A stretch of DNA of 64,000 nt from Gammaproteobacteria bacterium (lineage in GTDB: Bacteria; Pseudomonadota; Gammaproteobacteria; CBDBNL01; JAAOII01). A program made the position numbers and the translations under genes. Of this stretch, positions 3,147 to 62,447 are shown one piece after another; within the stretch, counting starts at the first letter, position 1; every line of letters begins with the position of its first letter. The DNA is taken from NCBI GenBank assembly GCA_965207705.1, contig OZ242292.1:1637276-1701275 (forward strand). Direction: 5' to 3'. Below the pieces are notes generated by a model, which saw only the letters and a list, made by a program, of their open reading frames with translations, did not search any database and was not told the origin of the DNA.

Positions 3147-3234
3147 CTCTCATAAATAATGTGCGGAGGCACAAGGTGCATGGGGACGCATACAAGCATA
3201 TATAGATTAAGTATTTTTGCTATATAATAACCAC

Positions 3235-4518
3235 ATGCAATTAAAAGCTAATTCTCATATTGACGACCTAAGCAAATATGTCGCCGATATCGCTTCAGCT
3301 GCTCGCACTGCGGCAGCAATTATGGCAGCTGCCCCTACAGCGCAAAAAAATCATGCTCTACTCATAGCGGCTGACCTACTTGAAAAACAACGCAATAATG
3401 TTCTTGCTGCCAATAGCAAGGATATGGATAATGCCCAAAGTAACAATCTCGCTACGCCATTGTTAGAGCGTCTGGCTTTAAATGATGAAACCATTAATTC
3501 CATGATAACTTCGCTTAAGCAGGTTGCATCCTTGGCTGACCCTATTGGCGCAATCAGCGAAATGAAGTACCTGCCAAGCGGCATAAGAGTTGGCAAGATG
3601 AGGGTTCCGCTTGGAGTTGTCGGCATTATTTATGAGTCGCGTCCTAATGTTACCACTGATGCCGCTTCGCTGTGTTTGAAGTCAGGTAATGCCTGTATTC
3701 TACGTGGCGGCTCTGAAGCAATTAATTCCAACATGGCAATAGCGGAGATTATGCAAAATGCCTTGACTAAGGCAGGCCTTCCAGCGGCAGCAGCTACTCA
3801 GGTGCAGTCCACTGACCGCGCTATTATTTCGCATTTAATTTCCACTACAGATTATTTGGATGTCCTAATACCGCGCGGTGGCAAAGGACTTATTGAAAAA
3901 ATTAGCAGCGAGTCGCAGGTGAATGTTATCAAACATCTTGATGGCAACTGCCACGTGTATGTTGATAAGGACGCCAATTTAGAAATGGCGTTGAAGATAT
4001 CAGTAAACGCCAAGACCAGACGTTATGGAGTGTGCAATGCTATGGAGAGTTTGTTGGTGCATAAGCAAGTTGCCGCAGATTTTCTGCCACAGCTGGCGGG
4101 TGAATTGCAGCAGCATAAAGTTGAATTACGCGGCTGTCCGCGCGCTTGCCAGATATTGGCAAATATTAATCAGGCAACTGAGGATGATTGGTCTGAGGAA
4201 TACCTGGCTCCTATATTATCAATAAAAGTGGTAGATGATCTTAGTGCGGCTATTACGCATATTAATCAATACTCCTCGCATCACACAGATGCAATAATCA
4301 CTGATATGCATCCCAGTGGTGAGTTATTTATAAGAGGAGTGGATTCAAGCTCAGTTATGTGGAACGCCTCAACATCTTTTGCCGATGGTTTTGAATATGG
4401 TCTCGGCGCTGAGGTGGGAATTTCCACCGATAAGTTTCATGCGCGCGGACCAGTTGGTTTGGAAGGGCTAACCTGCCAGAAATTCGTAGTGTTAGGCACG
4501 GGCGAAACCCGCAACTAA
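3235..4518 (+). CDS. proA: gamma-glutamyl phosphate reductase ProA
   Basis: Aldehyde dehydrogenase-fold protein with ProA-typical segments ([39 protein letters not shown], catalytic Cys region [11 protein letters not shown]). The ORF track starts at a TTG at 3217; the ATG at 3235 is the more likely start. Confidence 0.93.
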
Positions 4519-4583
4519 TCATCTAGCTGGGGATGGCGCATACACATCCTTATATTTGGCATTAATTTTTTATTCGTATACAC

Positions 4584-4611
4584 TTGACATTAATTATAAA
4601 GGTGGTATAAT
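4584..4611 (+). promoter_or_regulatory. near-consensus sigma70 promoter (TTGACA-N16-TATAAT) upstream of GLUG lipoprotein paralog 1
   Basis: Perfect -35 TTGACA at 4584-4589 and perfect -10 TATAAT at 4606-4611 with a 16 nt spacer, about 90 nt upstream of the ORF start. Confidence 0.6.
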
Positions 4612-4703
4612 TACTTGTGTTAGTGTAATTGTCACTAATAAGTGACGGTTGACTTATATTGTTTTACAGGTTGGTGAAATAGATAAGTAGATAACGAATC
4701 ACA

Positions 4704-6179
4704 TTGAGCTATGTTATGTATAATCTTTTTAGAAAGACGAATGTCTTAGGACGTTGCGTGTTTAATGGGGATGCCACTCAGGTAGAACAAACTACCTCAA
4801 CTAACCTTTATATTAACTGCTACATAAGAATCAGGCGATATATACTTTTTCTTGTTACCCCTATAATTCTCTTCTCTTTAATCTCTTGTACCTTAGATGT
4901 AGCTAGCACTGATGATGAGTCGCCAACATCACCTCCCTCCAGCTCTAGTAGTGTTACTGCCAAAGGGTTGAGTTCTAATTATGTAAGCATATCCTGGGAT
5001 AGCGTCTTGGGTGCCACATACTATCAAGTATATAGCAGCACAGGGTTATTAGTTGCCACTGTTTTCCTTCCTGTCACTAATTATATTGTCACAGGTCTTT
5101 TGCCCAATACTGAATACATCTACCATGTAAGAGCATGTAATGTATCGGGCTGTTCAGATTTGACCAGCGTCTCCGCAACTACTGAGACCCCACCCATTAT
5201 CAATGGTACCGCTGAAGTTCCGCCCATCATCGATGTTACCGCGGAAGTTCCACCTGTCATTAATGTTACTGCTGAAGTTTCGCCTGTCATTAATGTTACT
5301 GCTGAAGTTCCAACTATCATCAGCAATGCCGCTGAACTTGCGGCTATTGGCACTAATAGCTCCACTTTATCTGGCGACTATATTCTAACTGGGAATATAG
5401 ACCTATCCACGATATCCAATTGGCGACCCATTGGCGATAACCCATCTAACGGATTTACTGGCAGTTTTGATGGTAATGGCTATAGCATAAGCGGGCTAAG
5501 TAGTTCGGGTTATGAATATGCCGGTTTGTTTGGCTATGTAAAAGACGCCTATATAAGTAATATTGGAGTTATAGCTGGCAATATATCCTCTTCTAATACT
5601 TTCGCTTCTTCAGCAGGAGGATTAGTTGGCTATGCTTATTATAGTGATATTAGCAACTCTTATGCAGTAGTTACGGACGATATATCCGCTTATGATGGAG
5701 GAGGGTTGGTTGGCTATGCTTATTATAGTGATATTAGCAACTCTTATGCAATGGTTGCGGATGATATATCTGCTTATGATAATTATGGTTCTTCGGCAGG
5801 AGGGTTGGTTGGCAAATTTAATGATAGTAAGATTAGTAATTCTTATGCAGTAGTTGCAGGTGATATATCTGCTTCTGATGATTACGGTTCTTTGGCGGGA
5901 GGGTTGATTGGCTATTTTGTTTACAGCTTTATATCAGTGGATTACGTTAATAAGGGCGCTCCAGTTAGTAATTCTTATTACAGCGCTAGCCGTGAATATT
6001 CGCAAGGGAGTTTTAGTAACTCTTTTGGAACTTATCAGACAGTTGATGAACTGCGCGCCTTAACTGCTGTGTCTACTGGCTGGGATGGGGCTATCTGGAA
6101 TTTTGGCACTGATGCCGACCTGCCAATGTTGGTTGCTACTCCTCTTACTGTGCCTTTGCCAAGTATTTTCCATGAATAG
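4704..6179 (+). CDS. surface lipoprotein with an FN3-like domain, five 10-aa tandem repeats and GLUG-motif beta-helix repeats (paralog 1 of 3)
   Basis: Internal lipoprotein signal (RIRRYILFLVTPIILFSLISC lipobox) at aa about 45-63. An FN3-like segment is followed by TAEVPPIINV x5. Then comes the conserved PTIISNAAELAAI...YILTGNIDLS...WRPIG...FTGSFDGNGYSISGL module and repeated GGLVGYAYYSDISNSYAVV (GLUG-type) units. The true start is unclear: no ATG, GTG or TTG lies immediately before the signal peptide. Confidence 0.75.
   Translation: MSYVMYNLFRKTNVLGRCVFNGDATQVEQTTSTNLYINCYIRIRRYILFLVTPIILFSLISCTLDVASTDDESPTSPPSSSSSVTAKGLSSNYVSISWDSVLGATYYQVYSSTGLLVATVFLPVTNYIVTGLLPNTEYIYHVRACNVSGCSDLTSVSATTETPPIINGTAEVPPIIDVTAEVPPVINVTAEVSPVINVTAEVPTIISNAAELAAIGTNSSTLSGDYILTGNIDLSTISNWRPIGDNPSNGFTGSFDGNGYSISGLSSSGYEYAGLFGYVKDAYISNIGVIAGNISSSNTFASSAGGLVGYAYYSDISNSYAVVTDDISAYDGGGLVGYAYYSDISNSYAMVADDISAYDNYGSSAGGLVGKFNDSKISNSYAVVAGDISASDDYGSLAGGLIGYFVYSFISVDYVNKGAPVSNSYYSASREYSQGSFSNSFGTYQTVDELRALTAVSTGWDGAIWNFGTDADLPMLVATPLTVPLPSIFHE
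5190..5339 (+). repeat. 5 tandem 30-bp repeats (encoding TAEVPPIINV-like decapeptides) inside GLUG paralog 1
   Basis: ccacccattatcaatggtaccgctgaagtt repeated with a few substitutions five times. The last unit diverges into the conserved IISNAAEL module, so it is a possible VNTR or contingency repeat. Confidence 0.85.
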
Positions 6180-6321
6180 AATTATTATGGGCGAGGAGCT
6201 ATTTGCATCCCCCTGGTTCACCTCATTCTAGCCCCACATATATAAGAGATTTGTTATATAATAGGGCTATGCAACTTAAAGCTGGTTCTATTAGTGTAAC
6301 CCTCACAAGTCCTTTCCGCCT

Positions 6322-7104
6322 TTGAAATCATTTGCTTTTTTGGGTGGCGCCTTTGACCCTATTCATATAGGGCACTTAAGAATACTCATTGCGCTTAATG
6401 AGATTTTTAACTACACCAAACTATTCATAATGCCTTATGCTGTTTCTCCCACCGCTAAGGCATCGATTGCAGATGTCCCATCAAGGTTGGCGATGGCGGA
6501 GTTGGCGCTGAAAGGTTATAATAATTTTGCGCTGGAAAAAATTGAGGCAGCTTATGCCAACCGGGGGGACATAATGCGGGGGGATACAATAGATGCGAAC
6601 ACCAAGGAGGTAACTGCCAATTACACCGTAGATACTTTAACCCAACTGCGCCAACTTCATGGCGATGATTGTCATTTTAGTTTTATAGTGGGTGATGATG
6701 TTTATGCATCTTTGGATGAGTGGCATAAGTGGCAATCGTTATTTAACCTAACTAATATTTTGGTTATTAATAGACACGATACCTCGCCGAGCGCTGCGGT
6801 GATAAGTAACGAAAAGGGGAAGATTATTAGCAAGCAGATTGATGCGACTAAGTTATCCAATCCTAATAATTCCTCTAAATACTCACAAGATATAAACCAA
6901 GTCCATCAAGTAAACGACATGCTTAATCCGTGTGATGAGTTTATTTCCTGCCCTAATGGCGGTATAATAAAGGTTAAACTACCTGTGCTTGATATTTCCT
7001 CTTCTGATATTCGCGCTAAATTAGCGGCTGGCGAAGATACTTCATTCTTAGTTCCGCCACAGGTGTTTGAATATATTAAAATCAATCAACTATATAGAGG
7101 ATAA
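6322..7104 (+). CDS. nadD: nicotinate-nucleotide adenylyltransferase NadD (TTG start, with about 45-aa insertion)
   Basis: The N-terminus AFLGGAFDPIHIGHL is the (H/T)xGH nucleotidyltransferase motif typical of NadD, and the C-terminal SSSDIR motif is present. The gene sits in the conserved nadD-rsfS neighbourhood. At 260 aa it is longer than the usual roughly 215 aa because of a low-complexity insert. Confidence 0.85.
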   Translation: MKSFAFLGGAFDPIHIGHLRILIALNEIFNYTKLFIMPYAVSPTAKASIADVPSRLAMAELALKGYNNFALEKIEAAYANRGDIMRGDTIDANTKEVTANYTVDTLTQLRQLHGDDCHFSFIVGDDVYASLDEWHKWQSLFNLTNILVINRHDTSPSAAVISNEKGKIISKQIDATKLSNPNNSSKYSQDINQVHQVNDMLNPCDEFISCPNGGIIKVKLPVLDISSSDIRAKLAAGEDTSFLVPPQVFEYIKINQLYRG

Positions 7105-10544: not shown

Positions 10545-10876
10545 AATTCTGGTATGTTGCTTGAATTCACGACGCATTTCTGGTATGGTGTTTGAACGAA
10601 CGATGATGGTCTGTAGGGGCGGAGCTGCGCTCCGCCCGCAAAATGCATAATACTCGCGACAAACCATCAGCATGCTCGCATCGCTCTGCCCGCAAAATGC
10701 ATAACACTCGCGACAAACCCTCGCTATGCTCGCGACCTTCTTATATGTGATGCATAAATTCTTGCGACACCCGTTTGATATAATGCATAAATTCTTGCAA
10801 CACAGGTCTGTAGGGGCGGAGCTGTGCTCCGCCCGCAAAATGTATAATACTCGCGACAAACTCTCGGCATGCTCGC
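10545..10876. repeat. composite REP cluster: two full hairpin cores (10608-10660, 10802-10855), one core-less tail unit and a 27-bp tandem repeat (10549-10604)
   Basis: GGTCTGTAGGGGCGGAGCTGCGCTCCGCCCGCAAAATGCATAATACTCGCGACAAACC occurs twice, with a partial copy in between. Direct repeats CGACGCAATTCTGGTATGTTGCTTGAA and CGACGCATTTCTGGTATGGTGTTTGAA are also present. A 112-aa minus-strand ORF here is an artefact of the repeats. Confidence 0.85.
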
Positions 10877-10924
10877 CTTATTTATTAATTTATTATTAAG
10901 AATTATTTTATAATAACTGTAGTT

Positions 10925-12208: not shown

Positions 12209-12261
12209 TATTTGTGAATCTTCATCAGTATAGTATATAAAATAGCAATGCAGGTTTTAAA

Positions 12262-12346
12262 CTTGCGACGGTGGTCTGTAGGGGCGGAAGCATATATACC
12301 CCCCTTGGCTCCGCTCGCATCGTACTTATGTATAATACTTGCAATG
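12262..12346. repeat. REP-like element, degenerate, with an insertion in the loop
   Basis: CTTGCGACGGTGGTCTGTAGGGGCGGAAGCATATATACCCCCCTTGGCTCCGCTCGC...TATAATACTTGC matches the REP core with a loop insertion related to the CTATATTCATCCCCC module. Confidence 0.7.
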
Positions 12347-12368
12347 TACTCTATTTACTACAACAAAT

Positions 12369-13014: not shown

Positions 13015-13021
13015 GGGACAT

Positions 13022-13170
13022 TGTCGCGAGCTTTATACATTTTGCGGGCGGAGCGCAGCTCCGCCCCTACAGACCTATGTCGCAAGAATTCAAACAACAT
13101 ATCAAATGGGAGTCGCAAGAATTCAAACAACATATCAAATGGGCGTCGCAAGAATTTATGCGTCATAAAT
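13022..13170. repeat. REP element in reverse orientation followed by 2.6 tandem copies of a 33-bp unit
   Basis: GTCGCGAGCTTTATACATTTTGCGGGCGGAGCGCAGCTCCGCCCCTACAGACC is the reverse complement of the REP core. After it, GTCGCAAGAATTCAAACAACATATCAAATGGG(A/C) occurs twice, then a truncated copy. A 68-aa plus-strand ORF here is a repeat artefact. Confidence 0.85.
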
Positions 13171-40537: not shown

Positions 40538-40581
40538 TGAAAAAATGCTAATAAAGTTTTATACACATTTTTATACACACT

Positions 40582-40659
<78 letters not shown>

Positions 40660-40664
40660 ATTTT

Positions 40665-42026
40665 ATGAGGATATGTTTTGCTGGCATATTCTTCATTCTA
40701 TCCACATCATTTTCTGCGAGCGCTGTTTCTGCTTTGCCTGATATAAGCGCTGGCACGCGCATATCTTCCGAGCAAGAAAAGCAGCTTGGACGCAATTGGC
40801 TTAGAAGCAACTACAGGATATTGAAGGCAGTGAATGATATTGCGCTGCAATCTTATGTTGAAGAATTAGTGCGCAGAATTAAGCAAGGACCAGAACTCTC
40901 CAAGTATGATATGAATATCGTCCTTATGGATAACCCCAATTTTAATGCTTTTGCTGTTCCTGGCGGGGTTATGGGTATTAATCTTGGCGTGCTGCAATTA
41001 GCGGAAAGCGAAGGAGAATTTGCCTCAGTTGTAGCGCATGAGTTGGCGCATCTTAGCCAAGACCATTTTATTAGACGGGTGGAAAGGGCAAGGACTACAA
41101 ACAGCGCCGCGCTTGTTTCAGTATTCACTGGCATTGGCTTGTTGCTGAGTGGAAATATTCCGCTGGCAGCGCTTGCCATTTATGGTGGAGCTAATTATCA
41201 ATTAGAATCATATCTTAGTTTATCGCGTCGTTTTGAACGAGAGGCGGATAGTCAGGCAACGGTATTTTTACGCAATAGTAATTTTGATTTATCCGAGATG
41301 GCAAATATGTTCTCCCGCTTAAACGCCCTTAGCGGTAATCAAGAGATTGCTGGATATGCCAGCACTCACCCCCTTACTATAGACAGAGTTAACTATGCAT
41401 TATTAAGAGCAGGGCAGCAACGTAGTCAAAAGTTCTATACTTCTGGCGATTATAGTTTTGTTCGGCTGCGCGCTCGGGCTATATTAGGAACTCTGCCGAT
41501 TATCTCAGGTTATGGAGCGGATGGCGATTATACCCGAGTTTTACAATTACAAAAACGTAATAAACACCTGCAAGCCAGCAAGATATTGAAAGCGCTGTAT
41601 AAGGATTACCCATTTTCGGTGATTATCTACTGCTCCTATCTTGAATCTATGATTGCATCAGGACAAACCGAAGAGGCAATCGCCAGTATAAATTACAAAT
41701 TACGCTATTCTTCTCGTGAAGGGTTTTTATATTATTTTCTTGCTCTTGCTTATGCCAAGCAGAAAGATTACACCAAGGCAGCGGCACAGATGGAAAAGTT
41801 GGCTTCCGCCACACCAGAGAATCCTGATGTGTGGCTTAAACTTTCTTTTTACTACAATAAATTAGAGGATAAATTTAATATATTTCGTTCCCGTTCTGTC
41901 TATCAACTATTAATTGGGGCTAAAAGAGAAATGCGCGAAAGCATACAGTTAGCCAAAGAAGAGGCAAAAGATGATGAGATTCTATTAGTTCAGTTGGATA
42001 ATCTGCACCAACGATTAATTAATTAG
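40665..42026 (+). CDS. bepA: BepA-like periplasmic M48 metalloprotease with TPR domain
   Basis: A signal peptide, the HEXXH motif (VVAHELAHLSQDH) with downstream Glu, and C-terminal TPR-like helical repeats. The ORF-track start at 40545 runs through the tRNA, so the ATG at 40665 is preferred. Confidence 0.8.
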   Translation: MRICFAGIFFILSTSFSASAVSALPDISAGTRISSEQEKQLGRNWLRSNYRILKAVNDIALQSYVEELVRRIKQGPELSKYDMNIVLMDNPNFNAFAVPGGVMGINLGVLQLAESEGEFASVVAHELAHLSQDHFIRRVERARTTNSAALVSVFTGIGLLLSGNIPLAALAIYGGANYQLESYLSLSRRFEREADSQATVFLRNSNFDLSEMANMFSRLNALSGNQEIAGYASTHPLTIDRVNYALLRAGQQRSQKFYTSGDYSFVRLRARAILGTLPIISGYGADGDYTRVLQLQKRNKHLQASKILKALYKDYPFSVIIYCSYLESMIASGQTEEAIASINYKLRYSSREGFLYYFLALAYAKQKDYTKAAAQMEKLASATPENPDVWLKLSFYYNKLEDKFNIFRSRSVYQLLIGAKREMRESIQLAKEEAKDDEILLVQLDNLHQRLIN

Positions 42027-42047: not shown

Positions 42048-42076
42048 TTGACTTTATACAACTAATTACTTATAAT
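42048..42076 (+). promoter_or_regulatory. near-consensus sigma70 promoter (TTGACT-N17-TATAAT) upstream of GLUG lipoprotein paralog 2
   Basis: -35 TTGACT at 42048-42053 and perfect -10 TATAAT at 42071-42076. Confidence 0.55.
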
Positions 42077-42084
42077 TAACTACT

Positions 42085-43986
42085 ATGGATGTATATGATA
42101 CTGGTACCTATTTAATAGGTAAGAAATCAGGAGGTATAATTGGAGCTACAACTGGAGGCGATATTGTCAGCAATAATCACCACGGTTTTATATTCAAAAG
42201 AATATCCCCACTGCTACTTTTACTAACCTGCGTTTTGCTTCTAACTGCTTGTGCAAGTGGTAAAAGTGGTGAAAGTAATCCTGTTACAGATATTATGGAA
42301 GATGCTCCAAATTTTGAAGATTCTCCAAATTTTGAAGATGCTCCAAATTTTACTGCCTCTGTTTATAGTTTTGTAGCCATCTCCATTGATTTAGAAGGTA
42401 AAGTATTAGGCAGAGTTGAGGCAACAATTAGTGCGAATAACTCTAACCAAGCCGCTCCCAACTACGCTTATGCTGCGGATAATGGCGCAGCCGATGATAT
42501 TTTTACCCTTAACCCCACCACTGGAGACATTGCATTAAAACGCTCGCTTGTTACTGCGGATACAGGGGATTATGTTTTTGCTGTCATAGCTAAACAAAGG
42601 GGAAATTCTGCTGAAGGACGCGCTAATGTTACTGTAAAGATATTAGATATAGAAGGAGATGAGGATATGGATGGCTTCATGAATGCTTATGATGTAGCGC
42701 CAATGAATAGGACAGTTAATGTCAGCGGTACTGGCATTCCTGGCGACCCTTATATTATTAGCAATATCTATCAGCTGCAGGCAATTGACGGAGTGGATCA
42801 TAAACATAGATATCTTAACAGAACCTCCCTCGCTACTAATGGTCAGTGGTTATATGGCGCTAACCGCACTGCTCAGTTACAAAGTAGTTATCAGCTCAGC
42901 AATGATATAAATGCAAAGGTAACGCGCGACTGGAATGGAGGTGAGGGCTTTAACCCGATTGGTGATTGCGGCGGCACTTCATGTTATGCTACTCCAATAA
43001 ATCCTTTCAGTGGGGTTTTTAACGGTGCTGGTTTTACGGTGGATAATTTATTTATAAATCGCACAGAAGATGGTGAGATGAGAGGCAATATCGGCTTATT
43101 CGCTTTAACTGGTAATGCTAAGATAATGAATTTGGGGCTGGAGAATTTGAACATAACCGTGTCAGTTCTTGCTAGAGAACTTGCTACGGGAATTGGGGGA
43201 TTGATAGGAGGAACGCGAGAGGAATTACAGCAGTTAGCCGCTAATTTAAATCATGTTTATGTGACTGGGAATATACAAGCTATAGACAAGTCACCTAATT
43301 CAAACAATTCCATATATGTAGGCGGGTTAATCGGTGAGGCAATAATTAATATAGATATTAAAAATTCTTATACAATTGTTAATCTTATTGGAGGCAGCCA
43401 CCAAGGAGGTTTATTGGGGGTAAATCTTGCTAATACAAAGGTATTTAAATCATATTCACTTAATAGAATAAGTGGAACTGGGACTGGAGGAGGGTTGTTA
43501 GGAGCTGACAGGCTTAGATTTTCTCCCACTGCCTCTTATACAGTGAGTTATGCAAATACTTCTGATGATGTATTCAGCTTGGTGGGTTTGAAGGTTACAG
43601 GCAGACCAGTAGATAGCAATACCTCTTATTGGCAGAGTGAAATGGAGGGAGGGATGGTTAAAGGGGTAGTAAGAAGCTTAGATGGCACTGCGTCTAAGGG
43701 ATTAAGTGTGGCGCAACTGCAGAATTGTGAATTAGATGGGGTTATGATTGATGGCACATCTGCAGGAGTTTGTGCTGGGCTGTTTGCTGAAGGTACGGAT
43801 GCCGATCCTCTGTGGGGCGATCAAACTGAGGATGGAGTTACCACTGGTTGGGACTTTTTACCTGTTGGTGAATATCCCTATCTGTTTGCCAACGATGACG
43901 AAGGCAGAGACCTATTGCCAACAGTTGCTGAACAAAGATGCCAACGCAATAAAATTTTCTACAACCTCCCCTGCGCCACCGAATAA
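42085..43986 (+). CDS. surface lipoprotein with calcium-binding Asp-rich motifs and GLUG-motif beta-helix repeats (paralog 2 of 3)
   Basis: An internal lipoprotein signal (FKRISPLLLLLTCVLLLTAC) is followed by an EDAPNF x3 repeat. Then comes the conserved DPYIISNIYQLQAI...WNGGEGFNPIG...FSGVFNGAGFTVDNL module and G-G-L-I/L-G repeats. Confidence 0.75.
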   Translation: MDVYDTGTYLIGKKSGGIIGATTGGDIVSNNHHGFIFKRISPLLLLLTCVLLLTACASGKSGESNPVTDIMEDAPNFEDSPNFEDAPNFTASVYSFVAISIDLEGKVLGRVEATISANNSNQAAPNYAYAADNGAADDIFTLNPTTGDIALKRSLVTADTGDYVFAVIAKQRGNSAEGRANVTVKILDIEGDEDMDGFMNAYDVAPMNRTVNVSGTGIPGDPYIISNIYQLQAIDGVDHKHRYLNRTSLATNGQWLYGANRTAQLQSSYQLSNDINAKVTRDWNGGEGFNPIGDCGGTSCYATPINPFSGVFNGAGFTVDNLFINRTEDGEMRGNIGLFALTGNAKIMNLGLENLNITVSVLARELATGIGGLIGGTREELQQLAANLNHVYVTGNIQAIDKSPNSNNSIYVGGLIGEAIINIDIKNSYTIVNLIGGSHQGGLLGVNLANTKVFKSYSLNRISGTGTGGGLLGADRLRFSPTASYTVSYANTSDDVFSLVGLKVTGRPVDSNTSYWQSEMEGGMVKGVVRSLDGTASKGLSVAQLQNCELDGVMIDGTSAGVCAGLFAEGTDADPLWGDQTEDGVTTGWDFLPVGEYPYLFANDDEGRDLLPTVAEQRCQRNKIFYNLPCATE

Positions 43987-43991
43987 ACCAC

Positions 43992-44250
43992 GCATAAATA
44001 CTTGGTATATAGGTCTGCTGTAGGGGCGGAGCCAGGGGGGATGAATATAGGAACCGCCCGCAAAATGCCTAACTCTCGCGATGTACCATCGGGATACTCG
44101 CAACATACCCCTGGTATGATGCATAAATACTTGCATTGTACTTATGTTCGGTGCATAAATACTTGGTATATAGGTCTGTAGGGGCGGAGCTGCGCTCCGC
44201 CCGCAAAATGCCTAAATCTTGCGATGTACCATCGGGATGCTCGCGACACC
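43992..44250. repeat. REP pair: one element with the 15-nt module inserted into the hairpin loop, one canonical element
   Basis: The first copy is GGGGCGGAGCC-AGGGGGGATGAATATAG-GAACCGCCCGCAAAATGCCTAACTCTCGCGATG, whose loop carries the reverse complement of the CTATATTCATCCCCC unit seen at 163-300. The second copy is canonical: GGTCTGTAGGGGCGGAGCTGCGCTCCGCCCGCAAAATGCCTAAATCTTGCGATG. Confidence 0.85.
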
Positions 44251-48512: not shown

Positions 48513-48605
48513 AGTACTTCTTATTGTTAATATTCTTTATAAGGGCTTTTATTATTAATTCAAGATGTAAATTAGCTTAGTTTTGTTTATGGGGTGAATA
48601 TTTTA

Positions 48606-48848
48606 CGGGCGTAGCAAGAATTTGGACGTCATGCAGGAGTTCATCGCGAGCATGGTTATGATTTATCGCAAGAGTTAGGCATTTTGCGGGCGGAGCGCAG
48701 CTCCGCCCCTACAGACCTATATACCAAGAATTTAAGTATTATACCAAGGGTGTTTTGCAAGAATTCTGATGGTTTGTTGCGAGAGTTAGGCATTTTGCGG
48801 GCGGAGCGCAGCTCCGCCCCTACAGACCTATATACCAAGAATTTTTAA
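48606..48848. repeat. tandem pair of REP elements (reverse orientation) with shared flanking modules
   Basis: GCGAGAGTTAGGCATTTTGCGGGCGGAGCGCAGCTCCGCCCCTACAGACCTATATACCAAGAATTT occurs twice about 120 bp apart, immediately downstream of the dprA stop. Confidence 0.85.
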
Positions 48849-50041
48849 TTTCGGTGGTAGAGGTTATTTTCTTGGTATATTAGCTGGCTCAGTTCAAGCT
48901 CAATCAGCGCCGAGTTGATACTACTGACTGGTTCTTTAGTAAGTTCAGCTAACTGGTCTGCATATAAGGGTCCTTTATCCAAGACCAGGAGTATCTGCTG
49001 ACTGACGCCAGGCAGCCCCTCAGGATGCTTGCCAGGATGCCCATCGGGCGGTTTGCCAGGATGCTCATCAGCTGCTCCCGAAGCCACCTCCTCAAATAAA
49101 CCCCCAGATAATTCGCCACTCTGGCTACTTCTCGCAGTTCCTCCCCCAGCATCATTCCTTGCTGCACTCCCAACACTTCCAGCCAGCTGATACTTAATTG
49201 CCATTCCATAGCTTTGATACACTGGCTCCAGATGCTTGATTATATCTTGGTGATTTGTGGTTAGATTAGCGCCATCTTGTATCATCTTGTTGGTGCCTTC
49301 AGATAATGGCGAGCGAATAGAACCAGGTATGGCAAAAACCTCGCGCCCCTGCTCAGCGGCGAGCCGCGCCGTTATCATAGCGCCGCTTGCCAAGCCGGCT
49401 TCCACTACCAGCAACCCGAGTGTAATCCCACTAATGATTCTGTTGCGTTGAGGAAAGTTTTGTCTAAGCGGTTGCACAGAGCGCGGAAAGATTGAAACAA
49501 TAGCCCCGCCATTATCAACTATTTTGTTGGCAAGGGTGTGATGGGCGCGCGGATAGGTTATATCAATACCAGTCCCTATAATCGCAATTGTTTTGCCTCT
49601 TTTATCTAATGAATTAATATGAGCAGTCGCGTCTATGCCATAAGCCAAGCCACTTACAATGCAGATGCCATAGTCCGCCAGAGACGAGCTAAACGCAGCA
49701 GCATTCTGGACGCCTTCACGCGTGGGCTTGCGTGAGCCAACTATGCCAAAAAGCGGGAAACGTAAAAGCGTAGGGTCGCCGCGCACAAAAAGAAGCGCCG
49801 GCGCTCCTTTAGTTTGTTTTAGTAAGACAGGGTAGCGCTCATCTTCATAAGATATAAGATGATTATGCGGGCTGCTTTGCTCCCAGCAAAGATCCTGTTG
49901 GATAGTTGCGGCTAAGTAATCCTTATCCGCGGAAGATGAATATTGAGGTAAATCCTGCGACGGATAAGCCAAAGCCCGCGCCGCAGTAATACCGCAATGA
50001 AAGTAAGTTAGCCAATCCTCTATTGGTATTGGCGTTGGCAC
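48845..50041 (-). CDS. dprA: DNA processing protein DprA (Smf)
   Basis: Rossmann-like DprA core (GIVGSRKPT, SGLAYGIDATAH, GREVFAIPGS) and a C-terminal DML1-like winged-helix domain. A low-complexity insert HPGKPPDGHPGKHPEGLPG is present. Confidence 0.88.
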   Translation of the reverse strand: MPTPIPIEDWLTYFHCGITAARALAYPSQDLPQYSSSADKDYLAATIQQDLCWEQSSPHNHLISYEDERYPVLLKQTKGAPALLFVRGDPTLLRFPLFGIVGSRKPTREGVQNAAAFSSSLADYGICIVSGLAYGIDATAHINSLDKRGKTIAIIGTGIDITYPRAHHTLANKIVDNGGAIVSIFPRSVQPLRQNFPQRNRIISGITLGLLVVEAGLASGAMITARLAAEQGREVFAIPGSIRSPLSEGTNKMIQDGANLTTNHQDIIKHLEPVYQSYGMAIKYQLAGSVGSAARNDAGGGTARSSQSGELSGGLFEEVASGAADEHPGKPPDGHPGKHPEGLPGVSQQILLVLDKGPLYADQLAELTKEPVSSINSALIELELSQLIYQENNLYHRN

Positions 50042-58166: not shown

Positions 58167-59297
58167 ATGGAATACGTAAACATAATCTGGGAGGGCACGG
58201 GGATACGTAGCATAACCGCAGGGCAGGGGATAATGATATTAATATGCATACTATTGCTGTATCTGGCAATATTCAAAAAGTTTGAACCCTTACTGCTGCT
58301 CCCCATTGGCTTTGGCGGCTTGCTCGCCAACGCGCCGATTATAGACATGGCAGGTCCTGGCGGAATCCTCTATTACTTTTATTCTTTTGGTATTCAAACC
58401 AGCATTTTCCCTTTGATAATTTTTATGGGCGTCGGGGCGCTAACTGATTTCTCCCCTATGTTGGCAAACCCCAAAACTCTGCTGCTTGGGGCTGCAGCTC
58501 AGTTTGGCATATTTGCCACTATGTTGGGAGCAGTAGCACTTAGTAATGTTGGCATCTTTGACTTTACGCTAAGAGAGGCGGCGGCTATTGGGATTATTGG
58601 CGGCGCTGATGGTCCCACAGCAATTTACCTCTCTAATATACTGGCGCCGGATTTATTAGGTCCCATAGCAGTTGCCGCCTATTCTTATATGGCGTTAGTG
58701 CCATTAATCCAACCGCCTATAATGCGCCTGCTAACCACTAAAAAAGAACGTGGCATAGTTATGCACCAGTTGCGTCAGGTCTCTAAGGTTGAGAGAATAA
58801 TTTTTCCTATAATCCTGCTGCTTTTGGTTATTATGTTCCTACCTGATGCCACTCCATTACTGGGAATGTTCTGCCTTGGCAATCTCATCCGTGAGAGCGG
58901 AGTGGTGGATCGCCTAAACGACACATTGCAGAACTCTTTGATTAATATAGTTACAATTTTATTAGGAATTGCTGTCGGCTCTAAACTAAGCGCCGCTGAA
59001 TTTCTGGAAGAAAGGACTATCGCTATTTTGCTATTGGGCGTTGTGGCTTTTGCTTTGGGCACTGCTATGGGAGTGCTGATGGGCAAGCTACTAAACAAGG
59101 TTAGTAAGACGCCGATTAATCCATTGATTGGCGCGGCGGGTGTTTCCGCAGTTCCAATGGCGGCGCGAGTAGCCAATAAGGTTGGCAATGAAGAAAACCC
59201 GCATAACTTTTTGCTTATGCATGCTATGGGACCAAATGTAGCGGGAGTAATTGGTTCTGCAGTTGCCGCAGGAGTTATGATAAAGTTCCTAGGGTAA
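58167..59297 (+). CDS. oadB: oxaloacetate decarboxylase beta subunit (Na+-pumping membrane subunit)
   Basis: 376 aa polytopic OAD_beta family protein completing the oadGAB operon. Confidence 0.92.
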
Positions 59298-59317
59298 CAC
59301 TTGCGCCGTATTTATGT

Positions 59318-59450
59318 ATGCATTTTGAATTCTTGGAACGATGGTCTGTAGGGGCGGAGCTGCGCTCCGCCCGCAAGGTGCTCAATACTTGCGACACGCT
59401 ATCCCCATGCTCGCGATAACACTATTGCCATGCTCCGCCCGCAAAATGCC
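59318..59450. repeat. REP element (full core + tail, and a second core-less tail)
   Basis: GGTCTGTAGGGGCGGAGCTGCGCTCCGCCCGCAAGGTGCTCAATACTTGCGACACGCTATCCCCATGCTCGCGA followed by TGCTCCGCCCGCAAAATGCC. Its 3' end supplies the -35 TTGACT of the downstream promoter. Confidence 0.85.
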
Positions 59451-59478
59451 TTGACTTTAATTCATAATCATTTATAAT
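59451..59478 (+). promoter_or_regulatory. near-consensus sigma70 promoter (TTGACT-N16-TATAAT) upstream of GLUG lipoprotein paralog 3
   Basis: -35 at 59451-59456 and -10 at 59473-59478. The ORF-track ATG at 59477 overlaps the -10, so the lipoprotein start at 59510 is favoured. Confidence 0.55.
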
Positions 59479-59509
59479 GTTATATATGAATATATCCAGA
59501 TTTATACCA

Positions 59510-62332
59510 ATGAAAACATCAGCGCTACTATTTTCGCTAATTTGCATCTTGACGCTGGCTGCCTGTGCTGGCGGAGGCGGCGGTGGCGGAGGTAGCACAC
59601 CAGGAGGCAAACCTAATCCCCCTCCCGCTGGAATTGGCGTATTAAACTTACGGGTTATCCCTGATGAAACCAACGCTACTCTTATATGGAATAACCCTGA
59701 TGTGAATATAACCAGCATTAATATAACCTACCACAACAAAAGTACCCCTGATGCTTTACAATACTTCCCTTTAATAACAGAGGAAGATAGCATTAGCTCC
59801 AATGCAACAAACGTAACTAAAGTGATAACTAATTTAGAAGAGGGGTCAATCTATATCTTTAATGTTCGTTTGGAACTGGGCGGTGCCGATGAAAATAAAA
59901 CTGTGAATAGAGAATTATCCGAAACCCGCTTAATTGGTCCCAACCTTGACCAAGACGAATATGCGGATGCCGACCTTCTTGAAACGGATGAAGATGGAGA
60001 TGGCGTCAATGATAATCTGGATGCTTTCCCTCGCAATACCACTTTGTCCGCCTTTGCGGTTACAGAATTATCCGCACGTCCTGGCAACGGCGAGGTCACC
60101 CTTAGCTGGAATAATCCAGTTGCAGAAATAGCCAGCATTAGTATAAGCTACCAAAGAGATGATTTTGTTGGTCAACTTATGATGAATAGCAGCGCTCAAA
60201 TAACCTCTGGCGAACAGAATGTGCAAGAAACCATAGAAGGACTAACCAACGGACAATCCTATACTTTTAATGTTACCTTGACATTAACTGGCGATGATGC
60301 TGCTAAGAAAGTAATGGTAGCATCCACTACTGCAACTCCTGGCGCCTTTTCAGTAATAGATTTAGCAGCGTCTCCTGGAGCTGGCAATGTAACTCTTAAC
60401 TGGAATAATCCAGATGCAGATATAGCCAGCATTAGCATAAGCTATGAAGTTACTGGTTCTGGCATGTCCACAACAGTGGGAGCTAGCAACACTGGCAGAG
60501 GTGCGAGTGTGGAACAAACCATAACTGGACTAACCAACGGACAATCATATACTTTCAATATTAGCTTAACATTGCAAAATGATGATGCTGGCAGGGAAGG
60601 CATGGCGGTATCTGACACCGCAACTCCTAACGTCTTTGCAGTAACAGATTTAACAGCGATTCCTAACGACAGCAGCGTCACTCTTAGCTGGATAAATCCA
60701 GATGCAGATATAGCCAGCATTAGTATAAGCTATTATGAAGTTACTGGTTCTGGTGCGTCCACAACAGTGGGAGCAAGCAACATTGGCAGGGAAGCGAGTG
60801 TGGAAGAAACCATAGATGGCTTAGATAACGAAGTATCCTATAACTTCACTGTTAGTTTAACTTTAGGTGGTGACATCTATGCTGGCAGGGAAGGACCTGC
60901 GTTATCTATTATTGTGGGTATTGGACCCAATTTAGATGGAGACGAATATGCTGATTTTGTGGATAATGACGTTGATGGCGATAGTTTTATCAATGCTGAT
61001 GACGTAGATGATGACGGCGATGGCCTGATAGAGATTGCCACTGCGGCGCAACTTGACCAGATTCGCTATAATCTATTGGGCAGTAGTTTGAATACAAGCG
61101 ATGGAGTAGCCGGCGATGCCAGCGGTTGCGGCGGGCTAAACGACATCAGCGAATGCAACGGCTATGAGCTTACACATAATATATCCCTTGACGGCTATCC
61201 CAACTGGGTGCCAATTGGCAGCTGCGGAGACTTCGAGGGTACTGGCGAGAATCCTTGTACTACTGTGAGTTCATTATTCAGCACTACTTTTGATGGCAAT
61301 GGTTGGACAATTAGCAATCTTACTATAACAAACCCTGCTGCCCCCTACAACAACGCGGCAGGATTGTTTGGTGCAATCAGCCCTGATTCTATTCTGCGTA
61401 ATGTTCATATACGATCTGCCAACATTAGCGGTGGTGACAGTAATGTGGGGCTGTTGGTTGGTTATGCACAAAGAGCAAGAATTAGCAATAGTTCCGCAGA
61501 AGGAGAGGTTATGGCTACTGTGAGTGGGAAGAAGGTCGGCGGTCTGGTTGGTGATGGGGCGAACGCCAATATAACTTCATCTTATGTGACTGGCGGGTCT
61601 ATCAGCGGGCTTAGTAGTATTGGTGGTCTGATTGGTGCTGGAAATTTTGCCGTGATTACATCATCTTATGCGATGAATATTACTGTCCTTAGTGATAACA
61701 ATAATGCTGGCGGTCTGGTTGGTGCTGGAAATTTTGCCATCATTACATCATCTTATGTGGTTGGCGGGTCTGTCATCGGGCTGGATAGAGTTGGCGGTAT
61801 GGCTGGTAATGGGGAGAGCAGTACCAAGATTACTTTGTCTTATGTGGGGGACTTGTTTATCAGTGGAAGGAGTAATATTGGCGGCATGGTTGGGGGTGGT
61901 AATAGCATAATCACTTCGTCTTATGTGGGAGGTGGTGTTGACATCATAGGTACCGGTAGGAACATCGGCGGTATGATTGGTTCTGGGGATGGCGCTACCA
62001 TCAAATCGTCTTATGTTGCGGCTGATACTATCAGCGGGACTAGTCATTTCGGCGGTATACTTGGTTTTGGGACTCTTAATGCTGCCAGCTCCAACTCCTA
62101 TTGGAATAACGAGACGAGCGGTATAACTGGTGGAAGTGTGGCCGGTAAAAGCGAAGGCAAAACCACTGATGAATTGCGGAACCCAGAAATGTTTGTAGGG
62201 AGTATTTATGCAACTTGGGAGGATGATATGTGTGGTGGCGATGATGACTCCATTGCCTGGGATTTAGGCAACTCAACCCAATACCCCGCCCTCAACTGCA
62301 CTCCCGGCGGCAAAGATGCCCAGCGTCCATAA
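59510..62332 (+). CDS. large surface lipoprotein with a poly-Gly linker, four FN3-like about 97-aa repeats, thrombospondin-type-3-like Asp-rich Ca-binding motifs and about 8 GLUG-type beta-helix repeats (paralog 3 of 3)
   Basis: Signal MKTSALLFSLICILTLAAC (lipobox), then GGGGGGGGS. Repeats LSWNNPDADIASISISY...TGSG...TITGLTNGQSYTFN occur four times. GPNLDGDEYADFVDNDVDGDSFINADDVDDDGDG follows. Then comes the conserved IEIATAAQLDQIRYNL...WVPIG...FDGNGWTISNL module and repeated IGGLIGAGNFAVITSSYV units. Confidence 0.8.
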   Translation: MKTSALLFSLICILTLAACAGGGGGGGGSTPGGKPNPPPAGIGVLNLRVIPDETNATLIWNNPDVNITSINITYHNKSTPDALQYFPLITEEDSISSNATNVTKVITNLEEGSIYIFNVRLELGGADENKTVNRELSETRLIGPNLDQDEYADADLLETDEDGDGVNDNLDAFPRNTTLSAFAVTELSARPGNGEVTLSWNNPVAEIASISISYQRDDFVGQLMMNSSAQITSGEQNVQETIEGLTNGQSYTFNVTLTLTGDDAAKKVMVASTTATPGAFSVIDLAASPGAGNVTLNWNNPDADIASISISYEVTGSGMSTTVGASNTGRGASVEQTITGLTNGQSYTFNISLTLQNDDAGREGMAVSDTATPNVFAVTDLTAIPNDSSVTLSWINPDADIASISISYYEVTGSGASTTVGASNIGREASVEETIDGLDNEVSYNFTVSLTLGGDIYAGREGPALSIIVGIGPNLDGDEYADFVDNDVDGDSFINADDVDDDGDGLIEIATAAQLDQIRYNLLGSSLNTSDGVAGDASGCGGLNDISECNGYELTHNISLDGYPNWVPIGSCGDFEGTGENPCTTVSSLFSTTFDGNGWTISNLTITNPAAPYNNAAGLFGAISPDSILRNVHIRSANISGGDSNVGLLVGYAQRARISNSSAEGEVMATVSGKKVGGLVGDGANANITSSYVTGGSISGLSSIGGLIGAGNFAVITSSYAMNITVLSDNNNAGGLVGAGNFAIITSSYVVGGSVIGLDRVGGMAGNGESSTKITLSYVGDLFISGRSNIGGMVGGGNSIITSSYVGGGVDIIGTGRNIGGMIGSGDGATIKSSYVAADTISGTSHFGGILGFGTLNAASSNSYWNNETSGITGGSVAGKSEGKTTDELRNPEMFVGSIYATWEDDMCGGDDDSIAWDLGNSTQYPALNCTPGGKDAQRP
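60052..60920 (+). repeat. three tightly similar tandem repeats of about 290 bp (FN3-like modules) inside GLUG paralog 3; a fourth diverged copy lies at about 59640-59950
   Basis: Units start at about 60052, 60347 and 60634 (TTTGCGGTTACAGAATTATCC, TTTTCAGTAATAGATTTAGCA, TTTGCAGTAACAGATTTAACA) and share long near-identical stretches, for example AGATGCAGATATAGCCAGCATTAGTATAAGCTAT. Confidence 0.85.
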
Positions 62333-62338
62333 AGGGTC

Positions 62339-62447
62339 CTGCGACGCAGGTCTGTTGTAAGGGCGGAGCCAGGGGGAATGAATATAGTTTCCGCCCGCAA
62401 GATGTCTAAAACTTGCGACGGACTGTCGGCATACTCGCGATAACATA
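62339..62447. repeat. REP element with the 15-nt module inserted in the hairpin loop
   Basis: GGTCTGTTGTAAGGGCGGAGCC-AGGGGGAATGAATATAG-TTTCCGCCCGCAAGATGTCTAAAACTTGCGACGG...CATACTCGCGATAAC has the same architecture as the first copy at 43992-44250. Confidence 0.8.

Follow-up and report, generated by a model that had tools for sequence, protein, structure and literature searches.

A putative GLUG-module lipoprotein with a candidate extended signal at the variable proA-nadD locus of an uncultured gammaproteobacterium

The window analyzed here is a 64 kb stretch (contig OZ242292.1, G+C content 41.8%) of an uncultured Gammaproteobacteria metagenome-assembled genome (MAG) of roughly 2 Mb, whose nearest species representative is OZ242303.1 (1.86 Mb). 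It contains three genes for GLUG-repeat proteins, termed p1 (paralog 1, 4716-6179), p2 (42085-43986) and p3 (59486-62332), of which p1 is the main subject of this report. An open reading frame (ORF) scan describes p1 as a 491-amino acid (aa) ORF at 4704-6179, in which TTG at 4704 is a mechanical ORF start only; the 487-aa product from ATG 4716 is an exact match to the public sequence P0002. The p1 ORF lies between a 433-aa ORF (3217-4518) and a 260-aa ORF (6322-7104), and the gene calls of sister genomes identify these flanks as an aldehyde-dehydrogenase-family gene (proA-like) and a CTP_transf_like gene (nadD-like), in the gene order clpB-proA-X-nadD-rsfS-PBP2. The features of the three paralogs are as follows.

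4584-4611, + strand: sigma-70 promoter of p1, TTGACA, 16-nucleotide (nt) spacer, TG-extended TATAAT, 12/12 match
4626-4651 and 4652-4688, + strand: two adjacent predicted leader stem-loops (minimum free energy fold, z = -2.0)
4716-6179, + strand: p1 coding sequence (CDS), ATG start, TAG stop, 487 aa
4716-4823, + strand: candidate N-terminal extension, aa 1-36 (MYNLFRKTNVLGRCVFNGDATQVEQTTSTNLYINCY), preceding the classical signal
4824-4889, + strand: classical lipoprotein signal, aa 37-58, with n-region IRIRRY, h-region ILFLVTPIILFSLI and lipobox L-I-S-C (Cys58)
4932-5165, + strand: fibronectin type III (FN3) domain
5190-5339, + strand: five tandem 30-nt repeats encoding the 10-aa unit PP(I/V)IN(G/V)TAEV (Tandem Repeats Finder, repeat family D13)
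5319-6176, + strand: module W, comprising head, GLUG rungs and C-terminal cap; right-handed β-helix
42048-43986, + strand: p2, promoter 42048-42076, CDS 42085-43986; cadherin-like domain, GLUG-type head and helix
59451-62332, + strand: p3, promoter 59451-59478, CDS 59486-62332; four FN3 domains plus a complete GLUG module

The initial annotation, made from the sequence alone, had proposed that three ORFs form a divergent family, and both their presence (4704/4716-6179, 42085-43986 and 59477/59486-62332) and their homology are borne out: BLASTP relates p1 to p3 at 3e-18, p1 to p2 at 1e-6 and p2 to p3 at 6e-5, and hhalign with a profile of 42 p1 relatives aligned p2 over the head module (98.9% probability) and p3 over the head, rungs and C-terminal cap (99.95% probability). 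No fourth copy was found in the window by tblastn. All three translations show the head motif and the GGL[VI]G rungs, together with the lipoboxes LISC (p1), LTAC (p2) and LAAC (p3). The expected family assignment by Pfam held for p1, which passed the gathering score for Glug (PF07581, 31.4 bits against a cutoff of 20.5, E value 1.9e-7) and also matched fn3, and failed for p2 and p3, which matched only Cadherin and only fn3 (four times), respectively, with no Glug match at E values up to 0.1. NCBIfam gave no meaningful family for p1-p3, the sole match being Mep72 for p3 at 13 bits against a cutoff of 645.

An AlphaFold2 model of p1, built on a 42-sequence alignment, has a mean predicted local distance difference test score (pLDDT) of 80, with values of 90 to 98 across residues 200-400, and contains the right-handed β-helix that had been anticipated for the family (residues 200-402, followed by a small cap). 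Tested against the solved GLUG domain 3n6z, p1 adopts the same right-handed β-helix, and its structural matches are confined to the helix, about 245 residues. At the sequence level, phmmer of the p1 module against PDB sequences gave no match; a profile search of PDB sequences with the module found 3n6z. In the model, residues 29-56 form a long helix (the signal) that leads into a disordered linker, an FN3 sandwich spans residues 80-155, and residues 165-194 are disordered (pLDDT below 50) and coincide with the tandem-repeat stretch. The 10-aa repeat array is a disordered stalk and probably the substrate for module recombination. The head of module W reads ISNAAELAAI..YILTGNIDLS..WRPIG..FTGSFDGNGYSISGL and its cap SNSYYSASRE..ELRALTA..WD..IWNFGTDADLP. 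Sequence and the predicted model together show p1 as a signal, a Ser/Pro-rich linker, one FN3 domain, a five-repeat stalk and one GLUG/M26-N-type helix module with cap.

Near-consensus promoters were also predicted for each paralog, and they are present, matching 12/12 positions for p1 (4584-4611) and 11/12 for p2 (42048-42076) and p3 (59451-59478). On both strands of the window there are only five sites of at least 11/12, against a Markov expectation of 2.8 ± 1.5, and the p1 site is the best of them. Because three of these five top sites directly precede p1, p2 and p3, the association between promoter and paralog is not a chance one. Transcription of p1 is predicted to start near position 4618. 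The orthologous loci L039 and L040 carry a promoter identical to that of p1, and the one in L002 differs at a single spacer base; promoter and leader (about 97 nt) share 96% identity across four orthologous loci. In L039, homology to the window upstream of the promoter is lost about 7 nt before the -35 box, which places the left edge of a conserved cassette just 5' of that box. The same locus (allele [M2-W]) has a D12-class DNA methyltransferase gene and a 387-aa gene inserted between proA and the GLUG promoter, at 520-2689.

The leader of p1 is predicted to fold into two adjacent stem-loops. All 26 of 26 pairs are kept in three distinct orthologous sequences, with two compensatory double changes and three one-sided changes, and each substitution in the orthologs preserves pairing or falls in a loop. 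Conservation of the stem-loops by covariation is suggestive only, as 119 of 500 shuffles in the control do as well, which is not significant. Rfam returned a sub-threshold chance match alone for the p1 leader, and therefore no known riboswitch or leader family is matched there. The 5'-proximal stem-loop may confer stability on the mRNA; alternatively, the palindrome may act as an operator. The structured leader of p1 contrasts with the layout of p2 and p3, where the -10 box ends 8 nt and 7 nt, respectively, before an ATG that is conserved in orthologs, a leaderless-type arrangement that the initial annotation had not noticed.

Two further -10-like hexamers within the p1 gene were considered and rejected. 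The TATAAT immediately after ATG 4716 was discarded as an internal leaderless promoter since no in-frame ATG follows 6 to 10 nt on and conservation of the hexamer does not extend to the other subgroup, and TATATT within the TNLY block was rejected on the same grounds.

Several observations support ATG 4716 as the start of p1. The corresponding Met occupies the same aligned position in nine of nine aligned homologs (the ORF of P0007 is open further upstream), and an in-frame stop lies 24 nt 5' of the ATG. No Shine-Dalgarno sequence precedes it; among 42 long ORFs of the window, a Shine-Dalgarno motif of any strength precedes only about 10, and because such motifs are rare genome-wide their lack at ATG 4716 carries no weight against this start. 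A roughly 45-aa in-frame extension ahead of the p1 signal peptide, with no canonical start next to the n-region, had been noted before and is indeed there. Downstream of it, p1 carries a basic n-region, a hydrophobic h-region and a lipobox of the form [LVI][ASTVI][GAS]C (IRIRRY-ILFLVTPIILFSLI-SC), and LI[AS]C is invariant in the p1 family. All close homologs (P0001-P0009) share one arrangement, in which the aligned Met is followed by a variable stretch and then by a near-invariant block, T-Q-T-N-L-Y-T-N-C-Y-R-K-I-R-R-Y-I-S-F-F-I-T-P-I-I-L-S-S-L-I-A-C. The consensus of the extension reads M-x-N-F-I-K-K ... F-N-x-D-A-T ... T-Q-T-N-L-Y-T-N-C-Y, after which come RKIRRY, the h-region and LIAC.

The coding status of this region was examined in DNA copies of the family. 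Frame 0 of the extension has no stops over 38 to 44 codons in eight of eight copies, compared with one to six stops in the other frames, and in-frame stops occur 24 to 48 nt 5' of the conserved Met. The conserved Leu is encoded by synonymous codons (CTT/CTA/TTA), and the Cys (TGC/TGT) and Tyr (TAT/TAC) codons vary as well; this synonymous variation within the TNLY..CY block points to selection on the peptide. In the signal proper, substitutions between close pairs fall mainly at third codon positions, which argues that signal and lipobox are under purifying selection. Between subgroups, DNA conservation starts at 4788, corresponding to codon 25. From these sequence comparisons we judge it quite probable that the extension is translated, in which case the family would have a lineage-specific extended lipoprotein signal of 58 to 65 residues.

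To define the distribution of this signal, an exhaustive hidden Markov model search was performed with an extension-plus-signal profile against 1.84 billion cluster representatives. Only 14 clusters matched, all at E values of 6e-18 or better and all at the N-terminus; they represent proteins of 434 to 7014 aa, and nine of nine that were inspected by motif count hold 2 to 11 GLUG modules. Among the matches is a 5780-aa gene adjoining P0009. At locus L036, two adjacent paralogs share a cassette of 82% identity that covers approximately -120 to +194 with the ATG as reference, and identity downstream of it is 64 to 69%. A Pfam scan of four N-termini at E values up to 10 identified no family, including PF13018, the family of extended signal peptide regions (ESPR). 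Neither Pfam nor NCBIfam returned a match to a twin-arginine translocation (Tat) signal (S/T-R-R-x-F-L-K) for the N-termini; p1 has twin Arg residues (IRIRRY), but one subgroup has KR and the h-region is strongly hydrophobic, so the signal is not of the Tat type. The extended signal, which the initial annotation had not recognized as such, is conserved, family-specific and common to the giant paralogs.

The orthologous proA-nadD locus is variable between strains, in agreement with the earlier description of a diversifying family: it holds one, two or three modules of four types, and the number of 10-aa repeats varies. Splitting the orthologous proteins at the head motif gave the module types W, M1, M2 and M3 and the following alleles.

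[W]: window, 487 aa; P0130, 477 aa
[M2-W]: P0001, 768 aa
[W-M3]: P0131, 913 aa
[M1-M2-M3]: L002, 1238 aa from ATG

Synteny of the locus was confirmed for L002, L039 and L040. Across strains, copies of one module type are 92 to 100% identical, and different types share 61 to 76% identity. A 10-aa repeat array precedes every module, with a copy number that differs between strains. Strains that differ at 11 to 13 positions in the N-terminal 157 residues have only 1 or 2 differences among the 286 residues of module W, and this mosaic pattern of a near-identical W behind a differing N-terminus points to recombination. Unequal or inter-strain recombination at the repeat arrays would be the simplest explanation of the observed alleles.

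Taken together, we read p1 as an allele of a hypervariable proA-nadD locus that encodes an envelope-anchored putative GLUG adhesin or coat protein with an extended signal (probability roughly 0.6). In this reading, p1 is probably a highly transcribed protein that varies by module recombination. The full-consensus, TG-extended sigma-70 promoter would drive strong transcription of an mRNA with the leader of about 97 nt and its two stem-loops, and translation from ATG 4716 would yield a precursor with a 58-aa signal made up of the 36-aa extension, n-region, h-region and lipobox. Following Sec export, signal peptidase II would cleave the precursor and the protein would be lipid-anchored at Cys58, where Thr at position +2 may favor sorting to the outer membrane. 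The helix would be held off the membrane on its stalk and may serve as a binding or adhesive coat element rather than as an enzyme. The 5' cassette (promoter region, leader and extended signal) heads at least 14 clusters of GLUG proteins (434-7014 aa) in the lineage, and unequal recombination at the pre-module repeat arrays would give rise to the allele series and, with it, to recombinational variation in size and antigenicity. By analogy to ESPR, the extension may modulate the targeting or translocation of large β-helical cargo.

A number of points weigh against this reading. The leader covariation rests on only three distinct sequences. Comparison of close pairs shows substitutions spread evenly over the three codon positions in roughly the first 34 codons of the extension, a part thus constrained weakly at best, and the indels in the extension are mostly 9-nt duplications that would stay in frame even were the region noncoding. 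The signal Cys, at residue 58 in p1 and 56 in p2, lies atypically far into the protein, well past the usual lipoprotein signal length (Cys within about 15 to 35 residues). In a gammaproteobacterium, a lipoprotein reaches the surface only by a dedicated route, and the window, whose ORFs were listed but not annotated for exporters, revealed no such route. Because the extension matches no Pfam model, PF13018 included, the analogy to ESPR is functional speculation. We also considered that the extension might be untranslated, with p1 initiating immediately ahead of the n-region at a non-canonical codon such as the invariant Ile (ATC/ATT) of '(R/K)-I-(R/K)-R'. The signal would then be about 20 aa (M-RRYILFLVTPIILFSLIS-C), a canonical length, and the conserved block upstream would be a 5'-untranslated region element; this accords with the missing third-position bias in the first roughly 34 codons and with the 9-nt duplications, and no ATG, GTG or TTG lies beside the n-region to serve as an ordinary start. 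We regard this as distinctly improbable, since the openness of frame 0 in the eight DNA copies extends to at least 17 protein sequences, with in-frame stops just upstream of the conserved Met, and TNLY(T/I)NCY, which lies upstream of the Ile, is conserved as amino acids through synonymous changes. ATC and ATT starts are moreover very rare, and no Shine-Dalgarno sequence is present to direct one.

A different alternative accepts the lipid anchor and places p1 facing the periplasm, as an outer membrane lipoprotein or a structural envelope element and not as a surface adhesin or antigen. The Lol pathway of Gammaproteobacteria by default delivers lipoproteins to the inner leaflet of the outer membrane, and the window ORF list, which carries no annotation aimed at exporters, shows no surface-lipoprotein exporter. 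Against a periplasmic location, family members of 4474 to 7014 aa with up to 11 modules are implausible as periplasmic residents, the shuffling and mosaicism of modules from strain to strain are what exposed surfaces under selection typically show, and projection from the membrane is suggested by the stalk repeats and by the FN3 and cadherin spacers. On balance we consider the periplasmic location unlikely. That the β-helix is instead an envelope-anchored carbohydrate-active enzyme (lyase, hydrolase or epimerase) seems to us very improbable; searches of Pfam and NCBIfam detected no protease or other enzyme domain in p1-p3. The surface-exposed adhesin or coat protein remains our preferred interpretation, and it can be compared with several known systems.

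The solved example of the GLUG-motif β-helix proteins is BACOVA_03286 from Bacteroides ovatus (PF07581; PDB ID: 3n6z, deposited as 'putative immunoglobulin A1 protease'). Unlike this protein, p1 is a predicted gammaproteobacterial lipoprotein with FN3 domain, repeat stalk and a predicted 58-aa extended signal, and its family strings together 1 to 11 complete modules. 3n6z itself has no known function. The M26 IgA1 metalloproteases of S. pneumoniae and G. haemolysans (PDB ID: 6xja, 7jgj, 7uvk; PF05342 and PF07581) have a comparable N-terminal β-helix domain, but the window proteins lack the middle and C-terminal protease domains, the HExxH catalytic region, LPXTG and G5, and their predicted anchor is lipid rather than cell wall. 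Since p1 stops after the helix cap, at residue 487, and has no catalytic domains, it does not qualify as an IgA1 protease. In the pneumococcal IgA1 protease the helix is a small, smooth, mobile gate next to the substrate (PMC7695701), which indicates that the fold can serve as a protein-contact element.

ESPR-bearing signals exceed 50 residues, are found on large β-helical type V cargo, and are thought to slow or condition export (PMC8151025, PMC2805444). The predicted p1 signal is similar in that it exceeds 50 residues, combines an N-terminal extension with a canonical signal, precedes large β-helical cargo and is phylogenetically restricted (PMC8151025, PMC2805444). It differs in having no PF13018 match even at E values up to 10, in the length of the extension (36-44 aa compared with about 25), in the cleavage site, which in the p1 family is a lipobox for signal peptidase II, and in the position of strongest conservation, at the C-terminal end of the extension (TNLYTNCY). 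Pfam found no type V secretion barrel or two-partner secretion domain in p1-p3, and the AlphaFold2 model of p1 has no barrel; with neither a profile match nor a barrel, p1 is not an ESPR-bearing type V protein. We speculate, tentatively, that the pre-signal extension of 36 to 44 aa could be an extended signal peptide of a new class that serves lipoprotein precursors, a functional analog of ESPR that arose in one lineage for the export of large and giant β-helix proteins (434-7014 aa) and is carried on a portable 5' cassette.

Variable surface lipoprotein families, such as Vlp and Vsa of Mycoplasma, combine a conserved 5' region and signal peptide with size-variable repeats. The p1 family resembles them as a multigene family with a conserved 5' cassette, divergent mature regions and repeat size variation. 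It differs in phylum and fold, the p1 promoter has no phase-variable homopolymer tract, and the variation is seen between strains.

GLUG β-helix proteins are very widespread in genomes and metagenomes and almost unstudied; in a full-text literature search, two papers that mention the motif turned up. The GLUG β-helix is already known; what is new, as judged from sequence, is the cassette with the extended lipoprotein signal and the series of module alleles, both restricted to one uncultured lineage. The gain, loss and exchange of whole modules at one syntenic site could provide a model for coat variation in small-genome uncultured bacteria, and a 58- to 65-residue lipoprotein signal with a family-restricted extension would test ESPR-like export control outside type V secretion. 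The strong, compact promoters, both leadered and leaderless-type, belong to a genome largely without Shine-Dalgarno sequences. These findings do not overturn current understanding, and we infer the functions proposed here.

The genome of the window encodes at least five paralogs (P0002, P0008, P0133, P0134 and P0145). Related genomes cluster genes for GLUG, FN3 and cadherin proteins of 1222 to 6418 aa beside small family members, at the following positions.

L036: 4575-7305
L037: 1-2776 and 5148-7857
L038: 1-2746 and 5114-8166
L001: 6155-9841

Outside the lineage, the closest match to module W is a spirochaete MAG protein of at least 1454 aa (L004, 142-4506, and L005; OZ242290.1, Leptonemataceae), whose GLUG module and cap are 57% identical to W. 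The accession number of the spirochaete MAG neighbors OZ242303.1, and the similarity suggests cross-phylum transfer of the GLUG module between possibly co-occurring bacteria.

For p3, the start given in the initial annotation, 59510, is corrected to ATG 59486: sister strains have Asn at the position of Met 59510, which identifies 59486 as the conserved start, and the 948-aa product from 59486 is present in public data. In the p3 N-terminus (59486-59566), sister strains have a 12-aa insertion (MNIYTTSSRIAINNQSRFIPNK...) in the n-region. In the p2 subfamily, conservation covers the Met at 42085 and the TYLIG motif, and the N-terminus reads M-x-x-x-x-T-x-TYLIG throughout. The p2 N-terminus (42085-42255) has its Cys at 56, compared with 32 to 36 in other subfamily members, and the signal carries a roughly 20-aa insertion (SGGIIGATTGGDIVSNNHHGFIF) that resembles a GLUG rung. 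Upstream of p2, a tRNA-Arg(CCG) gene at 40582-40659 lies inside the mechanical ORF 40545-42026, and the M48-type (HExxH) TPR protein of this ORF, just upstream of p2, probably starts at the internal Met (MRICFAG...).

Leaderless-type starts are not confined to the GLUG genes. At 13 of 45 gene starts in the window, a -10-like hexamer ends 5 to 10 nt before the ATG, and nine of the 13 hexamers are perfect TATAAT; examples are the ATGs at 3235, 7523, 10925, 13199, 30554(-), 32971, 34806, 42085, 45243(-) and 59486. Together with the scarcity of Shine-Dalgarno matches, this pattern suggests that leaderless mRNAs are common in the source MAG. Just 3' of p1 (6250-6325), the promoter and 5' end of proA recur as a copy of roughly 45 nt (TTTG-TATATAAT-6 nt-ATGCAA.T.AAAGCT). 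This copy would serve as promoter for a leaderless mini-ORF of 18 codons (6269-6325), whose TGA stop overlaps the TTG start of nadD (TTGA, 6322-6325). Copy and mini-ORF could constitute a promoter and translational-coupling device for nadD.

Repetitive extragenic palindromic (REP) elements had been placed at the boundaries of all three genes. A REP-like family with the core GTAGGGGCGGAGC has 11 copies in the window (0.6 expected), and copies do lie 3' of p2 (44020, 44178) and on both sides of p3 (59348, 62357); around p1, within 4400-6400, there are none of the 11. The remaining copies adjoin unrelated genes, so there is no specific link between REP elements and the GLUG family. Tandem or inverted clusters of the palindrome, GGTCTGTAGGGGCGGAGC-TGC-GCTCCGCCCGCAAAATGCATAATACTCGCGAC, are frequent, and REP-like sequences were mapped to 138-315, 10561-10881, 12250-12352, 13021-13170, 43989-44249, 48598-48877, 59296-59450 and 62348-62443. 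The -35 box of p3 (TTGACT, 59451) directly abuts a partial REP arm.

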